A stretch of 64,000 bases of DNA from an uncultured Pelagibacteraceae bacterium. Its GTDB lineage: Bacteria > Pseudomonadota > Alphaproteobacteria > Pelagibacterales > Pelagibacteraceae. The stretch covers positions 3,713 to 67,712 of the forward strand of contig CACHRP010000006.1 of NCBI GenBank assembly GCA_902582315.1. The letters are read 5' to 3'. This document shows, piece by piece, positions 3,460 through 58,619 of the stretch. Both the position numbers and the translations under genes were made by a program. Under the pieces are notes generated by a model that was not told the origin of the DNA, ran no database searches, and saw nothing but the letters and a program-made list of their open reading frames with translations. Every line of letters begins with the position of its first letter. Positions within the stretch are counted from its first letter, which is position 1.

Positions 3460-4691
3460 TTTATCTTGATTATCACATGTTTTTTTTTTCCAAGTGATAG
3501 TTTTAAGAAATTATGGTTGTTAAAATTTTTTAATGATATCTCTAAATTTTGGTCTTCAATTGTTTGATTATTAATTTTTATACCTTTATTGTTAATTATT
3601 CTTCTTACCTCGCTTTTTGAAGCTAATAGATTTGAAACAATCACAAGATCAATAATTTTCATACCATTTTCTAATTTTTTTTTATCTATTTTGATTGTTG
3701 GCAAACCATCCCCAACCGAACCAGATCCAAAAGTTTTTTTTGCTGTTTGCTCTGCTTTTTCAGCAGATGATTTTCCATGTAACATTGCAGTCGCTTCATT
3801 TGCTAATAAAATTTTCAATTCATTAATATTATGGTTTTTAATTTCTTCAATTTTTTTTAAACTTAGGTCAGTAAACATTTTGAGAAATTTAATTACATCT
3901 CTGTCATCTGTATTTCTCCAAAATTGCCAATAATCATATGGAGACAATAATGATTTGTCTAACCATACTGCTCCACTTTCTGTTTTGCCCATTTTTGCTC
4001 CAGAGGCTAAGGTTATTAAGGGAGTTGTTAATCCAAAAGATTGTTTACCAGAGTATCTTTTTATTAGTTCAACTCCATTAACTATATTACCCCACTGATC
4101 AGAACCACCAATCTGCATAATACAATTTTTATTTTTATTTAGTTCTAAAAAATCGTATGCTTGAAGTATCATATAATTAAATTCCATGTAGCTCAAAGAC
4201 TGTTCGCGATCTAGCCTCAATTTTACACTGTCGAAGGTTAACATTTTATTAATTGTAAAATGTTTTCCTATTTCCCTCAAAAATTTAATGTAATTGAGTT
4301 TTCCAAGCCACTTGTAATTATTTACAAATATTGGCTTTATTTTTGTGTTACTAGTTTTTAAAAAAATATTAAATACTTTTTTAATGTTTTTAATGTTAGA
4401 TTCTATTTCTTTATCTGATAACATTTTTCTAGTTTCATCTTTACCAGATGGATCGCCAATTCTTGTTGTGCCACCTCCCAACAAAACTATCGGTTGATGT
4501 CCATACTTTTGAAGCATTCTTAAGCACATTATTTGCAAAAGACTGCCGACATGTAAACTTTTTGCTGTACAATCAAAACCTATGTAGGCCCTAATAGATT
4601 TTGTACTTATAAATTCATTTAATGCATCAAAATCAGTGCATTGATTGTAGTATTCTCTTTGTTTGAATTCTGTTAAGAACGATTTGTCCAT
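3456..4691 (-). CDS. tyrS: Tyrosine--tRNA ligase
   Basis: YIGFDCTAKSLHVGS, QIGGSDQWGN, KMGKT motifs and C-terminal S4 domain. Confidence 0.97.
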   Translation of the reverse strand: MDKSFLTEFKQREYYNQCTDFDALNEFISTKSIRAYIGFDCTAKSLHVGSLLQIMCLRMLQKYGHQPIVLLGGGTTRIGDPSGKDETRKMLSDKEIESNIKNIKKVFNIFLKTSNTKIKPIFVNNYKWLGKLNYIKFLREIGKHFTINKMLTFDSVKLRLDREQSLSYMEFNYMILQAYDFLELNKNKNCIMQIGGSDQWGNIVNGVELIKRYSGKQSFGLTTPLITLASGAKMGKTESGAVWLDKSLLSPYDYWQFWRNTDDRDVIKFLKMFTDLSLKKIEEIKNHNINELKILLANEATAMLHGKSSAEKAEQTAKKTFGSGSVGDGLPTIKIDKKKLENGMKIIDLVIVSNLLASKSEVRRIINNKGIKINNQTIEDQNLEISLKNFNNHNFLKLSLGKKKHVIIKIN

Positions 4692-45420: not shown

Positions 45421-45534
45421 TTAACAACAGCAACAAGTGTTTTCTGGTTTGCACAAACATTCTTGGCCGTTTTCACAAGCACAAGTGTCATTAGTGCAAT
45501 TGGTACAAATGCATTTTGGATTTTCGCATGCCAT
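45421..45534 (-). CDS. Metallothionein-like Cys-rich peptide, 37 aa, 12 Cys (not in ORF track)
   Basis: MACENPKCICTNCTNDTCACENGQECLCKPENTCCCC*. ATG 45534, TAA 45421-45423; Cys codons are mixed TGT/TGC; same strand as both neighbours. Confidence 0.85.
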   Translation of the reverse strand: MACENPKCICTNCTNDTCACENGQECLCKPENTCCCC

Positions 45535-53730: not shown

Positions 53731-54192
53731 ATGAAAAAAAGAAAGTTCATTAAATTACTATTTTCAACTTTTTCATCATTTTTTTTTATCCCCTTATCAT
53801 CTTTATACGCGACCATAGAAAAAAAAATTATAAATAAATCACTAACTGAAGAACAAAAAAAAATAATGTTTAAGGAGGGAACCGAAAGGCCATTTACAAG
53901 CAGTTTGAATTATGAGACTAGAGAAGGTTTTTATCACTGCGCAAATTGTAATGCTAAACTTTTTTCTTCAAGCGCAAAGTTTGACAGTGGAACAGGGTGG
54001 CCATCGTTTTCTGAAGCTCTTCCAGGTGCATTTAAAACAAAAGTAGATTATTCATTTGGAATGAAACGTATTGAATATCATTGTGCGAATTGTGGCGCAC
54101 ATCATGGGCACGTATTCGATGATGGACCTTCAGAAACAGGAAAAAGATTTTGTAATAACGGTCTTTGTTTAATCTTTATTCCATCTAATTAA
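53731..54192 (+). CDS. msrB: Peptide-methionine (R)-S-oxide reductase with N-terminal signal-like peptide
   Basis: GTERPF, two CxxC, KFDSGTGWPSF, HHGHVFDDGP, RFCNNG motifs. Confidence 0.95.
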   Translation: MKKRKFIKLLFSTFSSFFFIPLSSLYATIEKKIINKSLTEEQKKIMFKEGTERPFTSSLNYETREGFYHCANCNAKLFSSSAKFDSGTGWPSFSEALPGAFKTKVDYSFGMKRIEYHCANCGAHHGHVFDDGPSETGKRFCNNGLCLIFIPSN

Positions 54193-54632
54193 TCTATAAA
54201 ATTAAGCTTAATCAATTTTTCTCTTTTTATTTCTTTACACCAAAGTTCATAAGTTTCACACATTCTCCAAACTAGACCAAAAGCATTTTGTGAACTGGAC
54301 AACGGAAAGGAACTTTTTGCAAAATAAGTTTCACTATTTTCTTGAAATTGTTTAATAACAGTATTCTTTTGTAAATTAAGTAAATCAATAGTTTCTTTTG
54401 GTATTTTAATTCCTGTTTCTTGATTAATGAAATTATTGTCTTTTATTTTAGAAAAAAGACTATCATGAAAATTACCCTTTTTAATTTCATCAAATTCTTT
54501 AGTTGCTAAAAATCTTTCTATAAGTTCAACGTTTGTTATACCTGGTTCTAATTCTTTTATTTTAATTAATTGTAAATAAATAGATTCTGCTAAATAGAGC
54601 ATCAAAGGTTTTGAGGTGTCTTTTTTTTTCAT
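54189..54632 (-). CDS. Hypothetical protein, preceded by a Fur box
   Basis: 147 aa; no family recognised. Confidence 0.65.
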   Translation of the reverse strand: MKKKDTSKPLMLYLAESIYLQLIKIKELEPGITNVELIERFLATKEFDEIKKGNFHDSLFSKIKDNNFINQETGIKIPKETIDLLNLQKNTVIKQFQENSETYFAKSSFPLSSSQNAFGLVWRMCETYELWCKEIKREKLIKLNFID

Positions 54633-54642
54633 TTTATTTTTT

Positions 54643-54661
54643 GTTAATGATAATCATTACT
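54643..54661. promoter_or_regulatory. Fur box 1
   Basis: GTTAATGATAATCATTACT matches 16 of 19 positions of GATAATGATAATCATTATC. Confidence 0.75.
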
Positions 54662-54699
54662 AACTAAATTTTTTTTATCAATTTTATGCATTTTTTTTA

Positions 54700-54719
54700 T
54701 GATAATGATTATCATTAGT
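54700..54719. promoter_or_regulatory. Fur box 2
   Basis: TGATAATGATTATCA (54700-54714) is a perfect TGATAAT-N-ATTATCA core; 54701-54719 matches 16 of 19 positions of the classical box. Confidence 0.8.
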
Positions 54720-54785
54720 TTTGAGATTTATTATCAAAAAATTTTAAAATGTTGAAAAAATATTTTTTTTTCTTATTTTATTCAC

Positions 54786-54965
54786 ATGGAACTAGAAACT
54801 CACAATTGTAGAAAATGTGGTTTAACTATATCGGCAACATGTTCAAAATGTCATAGAGTTGTTGATGTTAAGAAACTTGATGACGGATGTATCGTAAAAG
54901 TTACTAAGTGCGGTGATTGTGCTAATACCCCAGTAATTAAAGATATCTGTACTAATCAAGCTTAA
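54786..54965 (+). CDS. Small Cys-rich metal-binding protein, 59 aa, 8 Cys (not in ORF track)
   Basis: MELETHNCRKCGLTISATCSKCHRVVDVKKLDDGCIVKVTKCGDCANTPVIKDICTNQA*; three CxxC motifs. Confidence 0.8.
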   Translation: MELETHNCRKCGLTISATCSKCHRVVDVKKLDDGCIVKVTKCGDCANTPVIKDICTNQA

Positions 54966-54971
54966 GTTAAA

Positions 54972-56552
54972 TCAATTAAGAACTAATTCTGAACCTTTTT
55001 CAGCAATCATAAGGACTGGTGCGTTTAAATTTGCACTTGGTATTTCTGGTATTACCGATGCATCAATTACTCTTAAATTTTCAATACCTTTTACTTTTAA
55101 GTTTTCATCAACTACAGCCATATCATCAACTCCCATTTTACATGTTCCACATGGATGATAAGCAGTATCTGCTTTAGATTTTATATAATCATCTAATTCA
55201 TCATCGGATTTTGCATCTGTGCCAGGACCAATTTCTTTTCCAGCATGCTCTGAAAGAGCAGGTTGAGATAATATTTTTCTTGCAACATGAATACACTCTC
55301 TAGTTTGTTTTAAATCTTCATCCTCTTTCAAATAATTAAATAATATTTTTGGATATTCATATGGATCAGAAGAATTTAATGTAATTTGACCTCTACTTTT
55401 TGGATGATTCGGACTTGCATGTAATTGATAACCATGAGTATCAGGGTCAACCAGACCATGATTTATTACAAATGATGGAAAGAAATGAAATTGAATATTT
55501 GCAACCTTTCTCTGAGGATTTGATTTTGCAAATCCACCTGCTTCTAAAAATGATTTAGAACATGGTCCAGACTTGAACATAAACCACTGAATTCCTGCTA
55601 ATACTTTTGGTATTAGTTTTGTATAGGTATACAATGTATTCGGCGTCTTACACTCCTGTTGAATGTAAGTTTCCAAATGATCTTGCAAGTTTTTACCAAC
55701 CCCTTTTAGATCGTTTATTACTTCAATACCTTTTTCTTTTAAATGATCTGCATCACCAATTCCAGATACCATTAATAATTGAGGTGAATTAATTGAACCA
55801 CCACTAAGTATAACTTCTTTATTTGCATAAATTTTTTTGACTTCATTTTTTATTTTTACTTGTAATCCTATCGCTTTTTTTCCCTCAAATAATATTTTTT
55901 CTACATATGAATTTTTTAAAATATTTAAATTTTTTCTATTTTTAACTGGGTTTAAATAATATTTACCTACGCCGGCTCTTTCTCCTTTATGCATGGTTGT
56001 ATCAAACATACCAAAACCTTCTTGCTCTTCACCATTCATATCAATATTTGTTTTATGACCAGCCTGACCTGCGGCATCAATAAAAGCTTTGAATAGTGGA
56101 TTTGAATTTTTAGATAAATTTATTGGTAGAGGACCAAGAGAACCTCTATATTGATTTTCGCCCTCAGACCACGTCTCAATTTTTTTAAAATAAGGTAAAA
56201 CTTTTTCATATGACCAATTTTTTAAACCAAAACTTTCCCACCTTGAGTAATCGTCTTTATTTCCTCTTACAAAAACCATTCCATTATGAGAGGAACAACC
56301 ACCAATCATTTTACCTCTTGGACAAAAAACTCTTCTATTATTAAGGTAAGGTTCTGGTTCTGAATAATATTTCCAATTATACTTTGGATCATGCATAGTA
56401 TAAAGGAGGGCAAGGGGCATTTTTACTTTCCAAATATCGCTTGAACCACCAGCTTCAAAAATTGCAACTTTATTTTTACTATCTTCTGACAACCTATTAG
56501 CAAGCACACATCCCGCAGATCCAGCACCAACTATCAAATAATCATAATTCAT
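54972..56552 (-). CDS. betA: Choline dehydrogenase (GMC oxidoreductase)
   Basis: GAGSAGC.LANRLSE, CPRGK.IGG.SS.NGM, GKNLQDHLE, YHPCGTCKMG, SANLNAP motifs. Confidence 0.85.
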   Translation of the reverse strand: MNYDYLIVGAGSAGCVLANRLSEDSKNKVAIFEAGGSSDIWKVKMPLALLYTMHDPKYNWKYYSEPEPYLNNRRVFCPRGKMIGGCSSHNGMVFVRGNKDDYSRWESFGLKNWSYEKVLPYFKKIETWSEGENQYRGSLGPLPINLSKNSNPLFKAFIDAAGQAGHKTNIDMNGEEQEGFGMFDTTMHKGERAGVGKYYLNPVKNRKNLNILKNSYVEKILFEGKKAIGLQVKIKNEVKKIYANKEVILSGGSINSPQLLMVSGIGDADHLKEKGIEVINDLKGVGKNLQDHLETYIQQECKTPNTLYTYTKLIPKVLAGIQWFMFKSGPCSKSFLEAGGFAKSNPQRKVANIQFHFFPSFVINHGLVDPDTHGYQLHASPNHPKSRGQITLNSSDPYEYPKILFNYLKEDEDLKQTRECIHVARKILSQPALSEHAGKEIGPGTDAKSDDELDDYIKSKADTAYHPCGTCKMGVDDMAVVDENLKVKGIENLRVIDASVIPEIPSANLNAPVLMIAEKGSELVLN

Positions 56553-56556
56553 AAAC

Positions 56557-57618
56557 TTATATTTTTTCCATTACCCATAAACTTTCTTTACTTAAAAAAT
56601 AGATCTTACCATTTTTAGGATGAACTTGAATATCTCTTATTCTTCCAATTTTTCTTTGAAAAATGATATCTTCTTTAACACTTTCTAAATTAGTAAAATC
56701 TAATTTTCTTAGAGACATATCTTTTAAAGAAGTAATTAAAGCATTACCATTCCATTCTTTAAATTCTTCTCCCTTATAAATAGTTATCGCGCTAGTTGCT
56801 ATTGATGGAACCCAATACTGAATCGCTTTTGTGAAACCTGGTTTCCATTTAGGACCAATTTTAGTTCCTGAATAATTTGTTCCTCCCCATCCTAAAATTT
56901 TCCAACCATAGTTTTCACCTTTTTTTACCTCTCCAAACCAATCTCCACCTTTCGCTCCATGGTTACTAATATAAATTTTCTGATCAAATGGCGATAAGGT
57001 AAGTCCCTGAGGGTTTCTTACTCCAATTTGAAATATTTCTGGTAGCCAATCTTTTTTGTCTAAAAATTTTGGATTATCTATAGGAATTTTACCATCAATA
57101 TGAATTCTAATTATACTCCCTGGGTGCTTTGAAGCATCTTGAGCAATCATTCCTTGACCTCTCTCACCAACTGAGGCAAATAAATAATCACCTTTTATGG
57201 CTAGCCTTGATCCAAAATGATAAGGAGAATCAATTGGTGGATAAGCTTGAAATATATTTTCAAATATTATGTTGTTTCTATTAAAATCACCTCTAGCAAT
57301 AGAGGTACTAGTTTTGTAATTACCTCTATCCTCAGAATATGAAACCCATACTATATTGTCTCTAAAAATAATATCTAGCAATCCTCCTTGACCGTATTCT
57401 AAAACTTTAAGATTATGGTTAATAATTTTACTTTTTTGGTTCTTCAAGTTAACAATTAAAATTTTTCCAGATTTTTCTGTAATTAGTAATTCATTATTAT
57501 TTAAAAACGTAGATCCCCATGGTTCGTTTAAATTAGTTATTTTTTTAAGAGTAAAATCTGAAGCGTTTAAATTTATTGATATAAAAAAAATAATTAGAAA
57601 ATTTATTAAAATTTTCAT
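56557..57618 (-). CDS. PQQ-dependent sugar dehydrogenase (YliI/Asd family)
   Basis: PWG..F, GQGGLLD, HFGSRL, G.RNPQG, HG.KGGD, NYGW, GRIRD motifs. Confidence 0.88.
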   Translation of the reverse strand: MKILINFLIIFFISINLNASDFTLKKITNLNEPWGSTFLNNNELLITEKSGKILIVNLKNQKSKIINHNLKVLEYGQGGLLDIIFRDNIVWVSYSEDRGNYKTSTSIARGDFNRNNIIFENIFQAYPPIDSPYHFGSRLAIKGDYLFASVGERGQGMIAQDASKHPGSIIRIHIDGKIPIDNPKFLDKKDWLPEIFQIGVRNPQGLTLSPFDQKIYISNHGAKGGDWFGEVKKGENYGWKILGWGGTNYSGTKIGPKWKPGFTKAIQYWVPSIATSAITIYKGEEFKEWNGNALITSLKDMSLRKLDFTNLESVKEDIIFQRKIGRIRDIQVHPKNGKIYFLSKESLWVMEKI

Positions 57619-58619
57619 AGACTATTAATATCTTTCAATATTTCATGTGGGATATTAATTTTTTTATTCATATTTTTTTTATATCTTTTATATTTATTTT
57701 GACCAGGGTACATAATATCTTTTACACCTTTTATTTTCGGGAGTTTTTTTACTCTTTTTAAATTTTGTTTAATTCTTGCAATATAATTACTCAAAAAAAG
57801 ATTTGATTTAAAAGTTATAAATAAATGACCAATATTTTGAGGTCCAGAAAAATCATCAAAAGGATCTTTTGCTTTTCCACCATGACTAGCCCCAGTTAAA
57901 ACACCTGACAAAATATCTACCATCCACGCCAAACCAGATCCTCTAAATCCTGCAATAGGTAACTGCACTCCAGCAAGAGCCTTAAAAGCATCTGTAGTTG
58001 GATTTCCATTTTTGTCCAAAGCAGAACCTTCTGGGATTTTTGTCTTCATCTTTTTAGCAAGTCTTATCTTGCCTCTATTAACTTTTGACATGGATGTATC
58101 TAATATAAAAGGGACATTATTACCCGTAGGACTACCAAAGCATATTGGATTGGTGCCAAATAAACTTTTTTTTGCACCATGGGGTGCTAGTGCTGGAGGC
58201 GCGTTTGTAAAACATAGAACTAATAAATTTTTTTTTACTGCTTGCTCTGCATAAAAGCTTGATAATCCATAGTGACCACTATTTTTAACAGCTACAATTC
58301 CAATACCAGAGGATTTTGCATTTTTAATTGCTTGTTTTATACCTATGTCGCCACTTACAAATCCTATTGAATTATCCGCATCAATCAACGAAGCCGATTT
58401 TGAAATTTTTTTTATTTTAATTTTTGGTTTTCTATTAATTAAATTTTTTTTTATTCTATCACAATACATTTTTAATCTTGATAATCCGTGTGATTGTGCT
58501 CCAACTAATTCTGCTTTTATTATTGCTTCAGCAGATATTTTTGCATGTGTACTGCTAAGTGAATATTTTTTAAAAATGTATATTAATTTTTTTTTTAAAA
58601 CTTTAGCTGAAACTTTCAA
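57615..58619 (-). CDS. Ldh_2 (Malate/L-lactate/sulfolactate dehydrogenase type 2, ComC-like) oxidoreductase
   Basis: SHGLSRL..Y, NSGHYG, FGTNPI, GSGLA.MVDILSG motifs. Confidence 0.85.
   Translation of the reverse strand: MKVSAKVLKKKLIYIFKKYSLSSTHAKISAEAIIKAELVGAQSHGLSRLKMYCDRIKKNLINRKPKIKIKKISKSASLIDADNSIGFVSGDIGIKQAIKNAKSSGIGIVAVKNSGHYGLSSFYAEQAVKKNLLVLCFTNAPPALAPHGAKKSLFGTNPICFGSPTGNNVPFILDTSMSKVNRGKIRLAKKMKTKIPEGSALDKNGNPTTDAFKALAGVQLPIAGFRGSGLAWMVDILSGVLTGASHGGKAKDPFDDFSGPQNIGHLFITFKSNLFLSNYIARIKQNLKRVKKLPKIKGVKDIMYPGQNKYKRYKKNMNKKINIPHEILKDINSL

Follow-up and report, generated by a model that had tools for sequence, protein, structure and literature searches.

No bacterial group in the ocean is more abundant than SAR11, and large areas of this habitat are limited by iron. 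The iron regulon of these bacteria has been thought to be minimal: an earlier reconstruction named the fbp/sfu operon, encoding an Fe3+ ABC transporter, as the sole predicted Fur target in P. ubique (PMC1698941). FTR1 permeases were added to the regulon later, and the genes for both the transporter and FTR1 are preceded by the same 7-1-7 motif that we describe below (PMC4771312). Under iron limitation, the Fe3+ ABC transporter is induced up to 16-fold (PMC2864753). Outside SAR11, Fur has also been described as a direct activator acting from upstream sites, at norB, pan1 and nuoA of Neisseria and at acnA, sdh and nuo of Caulobacter (PMC2724300). A further parallel is offered by FbpA/B/C of B. 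subtilis, Fur-controlled microproteins of the low-iron response (Gaballa et al. 2008, as introduced through ref. 24 in PMC2864753), which are similar in length to the product of the SAR11 gene analyzed here. This likeness is regulatory only and does not extend to sequence. To our knowledge, the Fbp proteins are basic and have no core of conserved Cys4 metal sites; they act together with the sRNA FsrA, and no FsrA-like RNA is known in the system of the SAR11 gene. We read this gene, which encodes a 59-aa protein with eight cysteines, as a previously unlisted, second predicted Fur target in SAR11, because the earlier reconstruction predicted one Fur operon only (PMC1698941). Neither Smith 2010, Hogle 2016 and Rodionov 2006 nor a 2025 SAR11 'unknome' preprint mentions the ORF. 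It is also missing from the published arrays and proteomes of iron-limited SAR11, perhaps because the strain used lacked the gene or because it was unannotated there (PMC2864753).

The window, i.e., the whole 64-kb stretch of DNA that was analyzed, comes from a member of SAR11 (Pelagibacteraceae). In the ORF listing, the coding sequence occupies positions 54786–54965 of the plus strand including the stop codon, with the start ATG at 54786 and the stop at 54963–54965, and the product reads MELETHNCRKCGLTISATCSKCHRVVDVKKLDDGCIVKVTKCGDCANTPVIKDICTNQA. Translation of the ORF bore out exactly the reading frame and the eight cysteine positions (8, 11, 19, 22, 35, 42, 45, and 55) of the original prediction. 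Cysteine makes up 13.6% of the residues. Given the cysteine content of the window's long ORFs (1.1%), the probability of finding at least eight cysteines in 59 residues is about 3e-7, and in random sequence of the window's composition (29% G+C) it is about 2e-4. A six-frame scan of the window found only two small ORFs with at least two CxxC motifs.

When one genome per species was scanned, relatives of the 59-aa protein turned up in 312 genomes. The best 80 of these 312 all belong to the Pelagibacteraceae or Pelagibacterales, three of them with 100% identity, and at each of these 80 SAR11 loci the ORF is intact and retains all eight cysteines. In the protein alignment, the eight cysteines are invariant or nearly so, and G12, L13, T14, D32, D33, G34, V37, K41, and P49 are conserved in addition. 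Pairwise comparison of 79 distinct coding sequences gives a median dN/dS of 0.073. First, second and third codon positions vary at 23, 16, and 52 of 55 sites, respectively, and mean dS is 1.4; third positions are thus near saturation with the protein kept, which places the constraint on the protein and not on the RNA. The original prediction had allowed that the ORF might turn out not to be conserved, and the intact loci and low dN/dS speak plainly to the contrary. The ORF is a real gene under strong purifying selection across SAR11, and it is transcribed in the sea.

The gene had also been called unannotated, which holds insofar as it falls under the 60-aa cutoff of the annotation track; the exact protein, however, has already been called by gene callers in 499 blocks of public assemblies, where it is nameless. 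Likewise, the 84 clusters that the family forms in the protein database at 90% identity are all without a name. Marine archaea and phages had been proposed as places to look for homologs, and neither yielded any: no relatives were found in a scan of viral contigs, and the organism-labeled relatives are all bacterial.

Upstream of the ORF lie several Fur-like sites, for which no strand is given. The window's best Fur match is a perfect 7-1-7 inverted repeat, TGATAATGATTATCA, at 54700–54714 (15/15), and the 19-mer at 54701–54719 scores 17/19 against the Fur consensus. Together with a distal box, GTTAATGATAATCATTACT, at 54643–54661 (16/19), it represents the top two Fur-consensus matches of the 64 kb. 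Sites scoring at least 16/19 occur three times in the window, compared to 0.15 times per window in mononucleotide shuffles. A weaker site, TGAGATTTATTATCA, at 54722–54736 (13/15) starts at -64 from the ATG, which is the offset (about -64) of the promoter-proximal Fur box of other clades, and the 54700–54714 box is found at the same offset throughout the window's own clade (loci L001–L011 and L016). Every SAR11 clade has two or three Fur-like boxes directly 5′ of the -35 element, one starting at about -64 and the others at -86, -94, -114 or -144 from the ATG. The near-perfect 7-1-7 boxes within 663 kb of DNA taken from 83 SAR11 loci number 90, and every one of them lies no more than 200 nt upstream of the 59-aa ORF. 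The link to Fur boxes made in the original prediction is therefore real and holds across SAR11 clades. ORF, promoter and boxes move as a unit through at least five genomic contexts.

The 54700–54714 box contains an ATG of its own, from which longer gene models have been drawn. Models of 86–88 aa that begin at this ATG ('MIII...') were dropped, since their N-terminal extension is unconserved and bears indels; they are also ruled out by a stop codon in the window that closes the extension. Automatic callers have often produced spurious models of 79–96 aa from the same Fur-box ATG, where ATGATTATCATT is read as 'MIII'. Such long calls, all starting within the box, are P0001, P0002, P0015, P0020, and P0026.

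The promoter scan identified a -35 hexamer TTGAAA at 54752–54757 on the plus strand. On the same strand, the sequence has a -10 hexamer TATTTT at 54774–54779, separated from the -35 hexamer by 16 nt and placed 6 nt 5′ of the ATG, as read in the original prediction. This arrangement is widely kept: each of 77 distinct upstream sequences from SAR11 has a TTG at position -34 or -35 relative to the ATG, 44 of the 77 carry TTGAAA or TTGAAT at -34 to -29, and the commonest hexamer at -12 to -7 across clades is TATTTT or TATTTA. The commonest layout across clades is TTGAA(A/T)-N16-TATTT(T/A)-N6-ATG. Since this sigma-70-type promoter is in register with the ATG, transcription is expected to start at the A of the start codon.

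Marine metatranscriptomes show where RNA contigs begin. In three runs from one study, contig 5′ ends lie at 54785 (X5, depth 134), 54786 (X10, depth 60), and 54787 (X4, depth 22), with zero depth 5′ of these positions; the ends come from assembled, strandless contigs, and since assemblers can break at variable or low-complexity sequence, they are suggestive and do not amount to primary-end mapping. They fall where expected, 6–8 nt past the -10 hexamer, and place the inferred start of transcription on the first letter of the ATG ± 1 (54785–54787, plus strand). Because these starts agree with the conserved promoter register, a leaderless mRNA is the best reading and is well supported, in line with what had been proposed from the promoter spacing. 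Altogether, RNA contigs cover the ORF in 10 of 12 RNA runs. Coverage is partial in X8, where it extends to 54888, and in the oligo-dT library X6, where it reaches 54879 only; the matches of X6 are merely low-complexity poly-T and were rejected. Other runs contain lower-depth contigs inside the ORF. In two low-depth runs, contigs span the intergenic region, and these may reflect DNA carry-over or read-through.

Toward the 3′ end, an apparent untranslated stretch extends over 54966–55080 on the plus strand. Contigs end at 55064 in X3, X4, and X5, at 55080 in X10, and at 55055 in X7, which gives an abundant transcript of about 280–300 nt. As the contigs carry no strand, part of the signal in this stretch may originate from the mRNA of the convergent GMC-oxidoreductase gene. 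A weak terminator-like hairpin at 55018–55037 was rejected as unconvincing, its folding being no better than that of shuffled sequences (z = 0.69). A scan of positions 54000–55400 against Rfam detected no known RNA family.

To judge from profile searches, the 59-aa protein matches no described family: no Pfam family scored above threshold, NCBIfam and PHROGs returned nothing, and two profiles searched against PDB sequences had no match below E = 0.15. In its overall plan, the protein resembles zinc-ribbon/DZR and FYVE/RING/PHD modules. Like them, it packs four cysteine pairs into about 50 residues and places CxxC knuckles where beta-hairpin turns are predicted, and it bears a weak resemblance to them in profile and fold. 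It differs from these zinc-ribbon and cross-braced modules in that its matches stay sub-threshold and pairs 3 and 4 are irregular (C-x6-CxxC-x9-C). The match to DZR (PF12773) reaches only 17.5 bits against a cutoff of 27.3 (E = 0.005) and is confined to residues 5–29, and the best distant relative scores 20.2 bits. The double zinc ribbon envisaged in the original prediction is accordingly not borne out by the profiles. The protein also has in common with rubredoxin its size, a CxxCG knuckle capable of tetrathiolate coordination and a possible link to peroxide-detoxifying enzymes. Rubredoxin builds a single Fe(Cys)4 site from a CxxCG and a CPxCG knuckle about 30 residues apart. The SAR11 protein, in contrast, has eight cysteines instead of four and almost no aromatic core, and only its first knuckle, C8-R-K-C11-G12, conforms to CxxCG; the second reads K-C42-G-D-C45-A and not CPxCG. 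A Pfam-A hmmscan of the SAR11 protein and six relatives found no match to rubredoxin (PF00301) at E ≤ 1, and the rubredoxin-like NCBIfam hits of distant relatives remain sub-threshold (11–14 bits against cutoffs of 32–45), so the rubredoxin-like carrier suggested earlier finds no family to belong to. Neither the Bfd-like [2Fe-2S] domain nor bacterial metallothionein is among the Pfam matches at E ≤ 1.

Structure prediction, which had been recommended as a check, yielded models of low confidence, with an AlphaFold2 pLDDT of 50.3 from 34 sequences and 60.5 from 125 sequences. The low-confidence model shows four short strands, and its CxxC motifs lie at the turns. Foldseek searches of the PDB with the model gave nothing significant (best E = 1.5); the top non-significant matches are cross-braced two-zinc domains, with the FYVE domain of EEA1 first, and ribosomal zinc ribbons. 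The check thus produced models, but no structural match with E < 1. It is plausible that the eight cysteines form two four-ligand metal sites, arranged either sequentially or cross-braced, and in this respect the invariant cysteines fit the two sites foreseen in the original prediction. We read the protein as a member of a new family of small, putatively metal-binding proteins that has not been described so far.

An exhaustive profile search showed that the SAR11 family itself is narrow and uncovered an unnamed cysteine-rich family, about 63 aa in length, with members in marine Flavobacteriia and further bacteria. The few labeled members carry the organism labels Flavobacteriaceae, Polaribacter, and Myxococcales. 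The family is uncharacterized and absent from Pfam and NCBIfam, and its consensus is MxTYxCxKCGMSVNATCGKCxxPLxNDxLxLDDGxxVQISKCPxC/HxGKIKSPxCCGxDMxC. HHalign aligned the SAR11 protein with this family over residues 4–48 (45 columns) with 97.9% probability and E = 5e-13, and hmmsearch gave matches with E values of 1e-5 to 1e-4 at positions 4–44. By these profile comparisons, the family of about 63 aa is homologous to the SAR11 protein, which is a lineage-specific branch of it. Both have the CxxC-x7-CxxC motif, the DDG turn, V-Q-x-[ST]-K-C and a similar length, and some members of the wider family adjoin katG, as the gene does in SAR11. Identity between the two is only 26–37%, however. Cys35 of the SAR11 protein corresponds to Ser, Thr or Asn in the wider family, and a CCG...C tail is present in the wider family but not in the SAR11 branch. 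At the position of Cys45, the relatives have C-P-x-C or C-P-N-x-H, in knuckles of the form C-P-x-C-x-G or C-P-N-x-H-G, whereas the SAR11 proteins do not alternate between Cys and His. About half of the relatives carry His in place of one ligand Cys, and this swap suggests that a zinc-type site fits better there than a rubredoxin-type Fe(Cys)4 site. With eight ligands each, the wider family and the SAR11 branch would both suit two tetrahedral centers. By eye, no obvious Fur boxes were seen in three distinct upstream regions of these relatives.

At the SAR11 gene, the Fur boxes lie wholly 5′ of the -35 element, and the nearest 7-1-7 repeat ends at about -45 to -50. This is the geometry of the Fur-activated promoters of Neisseria and Caulobacter (PMC2724300), which makes the sign of regulation uncertain. 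In contrast to those promoters, that of the 59-aa gene has a good and conserved -35 element. Because of this -35 element and because the RNA is abundant in iron-poor seawater, we favor repression by Fur over activation; derepression at low iron agrees with the high in situ depth of the RNA there. We give a little better than an even chance to the reading that this is a monocistronic, leaderless, Fur-controlled gene whose product is a cytoplasmic microprotein of 59 aa folding around two four-ligand metal centers. In such a system, the promoter would be kept off by Fe(II)-Fur sitting on the boxes, whose centers lie about 55 to 135 nt 5′ of the start; Fur would block the A/T-rich UP-element region beside the -35 element and also spread along the DNA. 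Once iron runs low, it would depart, and the leaderless mRNA would be made and translated directly by 70S ribosomes. The protein would most likely bind zinc, at least at its C-terminal site.

The alternative that survives best, a more specific form of the original prediction that we nevertheless consider unlikely, reverses the sign: holo-Fur bound upstream of the -35 element would turn the promoter on when iron suffices, and the product would be an iron-binding protein of iron-replete cells, i.e., a rubredoxin-like Fe(Cys)4 protein serving as an electron carrier (for example to a peroxidase such as KatG or rubrerythrin) or as a buffer of labile iron. It draws on the position of all Fur boxes upstream of -35 and on the precedent of Caulobacter and Neisseria, in which Fur activates genes of iron-using proteins directly from upstream sites (PMC2724300). 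Ferritin is absent from P. ubique (PMC2864753), the first knuckle is CxxCG, the C-P-x-C-x-G of the relatives recalls the CPxCG of rubredoxin, and three arrangements place katG next to the gene. Against these points, a good, conserved TTGAA(A/T) is untypical of activator-dependent promoters, and the RNA reaches high depth in seawater, an environment usually poor in iron. On the side of the protein, a match to the rubredoxin family is missing even at E ≤ 1, the aromatic core is nearly nil, and His replaces one ligand Cys in about half of the relatives. As two iron atoms per protein would be negligible as a reserve, the iron store that figured in the original prediction can hardly be meant either.

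Returning to repression by Fur and a protein with two metal sites, the gene neighborhoods suggest the process in which this protein would take part. The commonest context, at 45 of the 80 SAR11 loci, consists of katG, an AspH-like gene and the small gene, with the AspH-like gene (E = 2e-9) directly upstream of the small gene; a peroxiredoxin gene follows the small gene in about a third of these loci. The window's own context, with MsrB, the 147-aa gene, the small gene and GMC-oxidoreductase, is found at 12 of the 80 loci. The gene lies next to PsiE at 10 loci, next to a 152-aa gene of unknown function and an M24 peptidase at nine, and next to DUF2784 and the 147-aa gene at three. The 3′ flank of the small gene is not conserved between contexts. 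Within the wider family, one low-G+C marine lineage (L092:843–3689, L093:1–2196, L094:3–2462) has katG followed head to tail by an unknown 169-aa gene and then by a relative of 62 aa, with gaps of 10–15 nt that resemble an operon, and at L160 another relative is divergent from katG. Taking the SAR11 branch and the wider family together, adjacency to katG is thus seen in three independent arrangements. In other contexts, the neighbors include genes for peroxiredoxin, CMD/AhpD-like proteins, GSHPx, and MsrB. The recurrent katG/peroxide-defense neighborhood did not feature in the original prediction.

In the wider family, katG adjacency is confined to a minority of neighborhoods, and clustering of the neighbors at 95 loci revealed mostly lineage-specific synteny and no universal partner. 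Since most of these neighborhoods are lineage-specific, we regard the link of the 59-aa protein and the wider family to peroxide defense as suggestive. From the gene neighborhoods and the Fur boxes, the protein probably acts in a combined iron and peroxide stress response of SAR11. There, it would most likely be a small thiolate-rich partner, because its gene is found repeatedly beside katG, peroxiredoxin, AhpD-like, glutathione-peroxidase, and MsrB genes. In a narrower version, which we think quite unlikely, this protein and the wider family serve KatG specifically, for example as the physiological peroxidatic electron donor that has long been sought or as a thiolate/metal cofactor chaperone. 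If true, Fur control in SAR11 would tune peroxide defense to the iron supply, in a cell without ferritin or a large regulatory network, and the transcript would also be a specific in situ marker of SAR11 iron status.

Some minor features accompany the katG contexts. The stretch between katG and the small gene (L024:3026–3881 and equivalent SAR11 loci) includes the gene for a 203-aa Asp/Asn beta-hydroxylase-like protein of the 2OG-Fe(II) type. After this AspH-like gene, L024 contains a short ORF (at about 3639–3881) whose product appears hydrophobic by eye and seemingly membrane-embedded. In L098 and L156, a 2OG-Fe(II)-oxygenase-like gene lies directly upstream as well (weak match, E = 0.003). 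Frameshifts or assembly errors interrupt both katG and the 169-aa gene in L092.

We consider it very unlikely that the protein is a metallothionein-like general buffer of Zn, Cd or Cu with only an incidental link to Fur. Its cysteine share of 13.6% and a more cysteine-rich 37-aa ORF 9 kb away would suit such a role, but the ordered CxxC knuckles, predicted beta strands and conserved non-cysteine residues point to a defined fold, no metallothionein family is matched, and the Fur boxes are kept in every clade and context. Least credible of all is a transcript that acts chiefly as a RyhB-like, iron-sparing sRNA regulated by Fur, with the ORF secondary or untranslated: it is short (about 280–300 nt), abundant and under predicted Fur-box control, Rfam is empty here and we know of no RyhB-type RNA in SAR11, but 52 of 55 third positions vary at a mean dS of 1.4 with a dN/dS of only 0.07, the 3′ flank is unconserved between contexts and stable structure is absent (z = 0.69). 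A dual-function sRNA was dropped for the saturation of the synonymous sites.

The 37-aa ORF is located at 45421–45534 on the minus strand, about 9 kb from the 59-aa gene, and encodes a metallothionein-like sequence with 13 cysteines, MACENPKCICTNCTNDTCACENGQECLCKPENTCCCC. A Pfam search with it gave no match. The statement that the 59-aa gene is the second tiny cysteine-rich gene within 10 kb refers to this ORF and is correct.

As a second autonomous Fur-box unit, the gene would add a new piece to the SAR11 iron response. The unit is kept in hundreds of SAR11 species and abundantly transcribed in seawater, and its product comes from an undescribed family. Its transcript is a candidate marker of SAR11 iron status for metatranscriptomes, and the gene is a clean natural case in which a streamlined genome conserves a leaderless gene. 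With two predicted metal sites, the protein is small and tractable, and its putative link to KatG and peroxide defense is directly testable.

The intergenic region that harbors the Fur boxes is shared with a divergent gene of 147 aa at 54189–54632 on the minus strand. No family could be assigned to its product, which had no match above the curated cutoff or at E < 0.05 in Pfam, NCBIfam, and PHROGs; the best match is DUF5871 (E = 0.059, 13.6 against 26.9 bits). The distal Fur box at 54643–54661 sits 11 nt upstream of the ATG of this gene and overlaps a minus-strand promoter-like site that runs from TTGATA at 54681 to AATGAT at 54653. Because the box overlies this site, it is probably the operator of the 147-aa gene, which would then be Fur-controlled as well. 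The 147-aa gene adjoins the small gene in two ways: it is divergent in the window's clade, and in L040, L042, and L044 a homolog with 45–47% identity lies convergently downstream of the small gene. Downstream of the 59-aa gene, the minus strand encodes a GMC oxidoreductase, a glucose/sorbosone dehydrogenase-like protein (GSDH) and an Ldh_2-family dehydrogenase (54972–58619). Further along follow sugar epimerase and glycosyltransferase genes, and as these differ among close relatives, this part of the window looks like a variable region.
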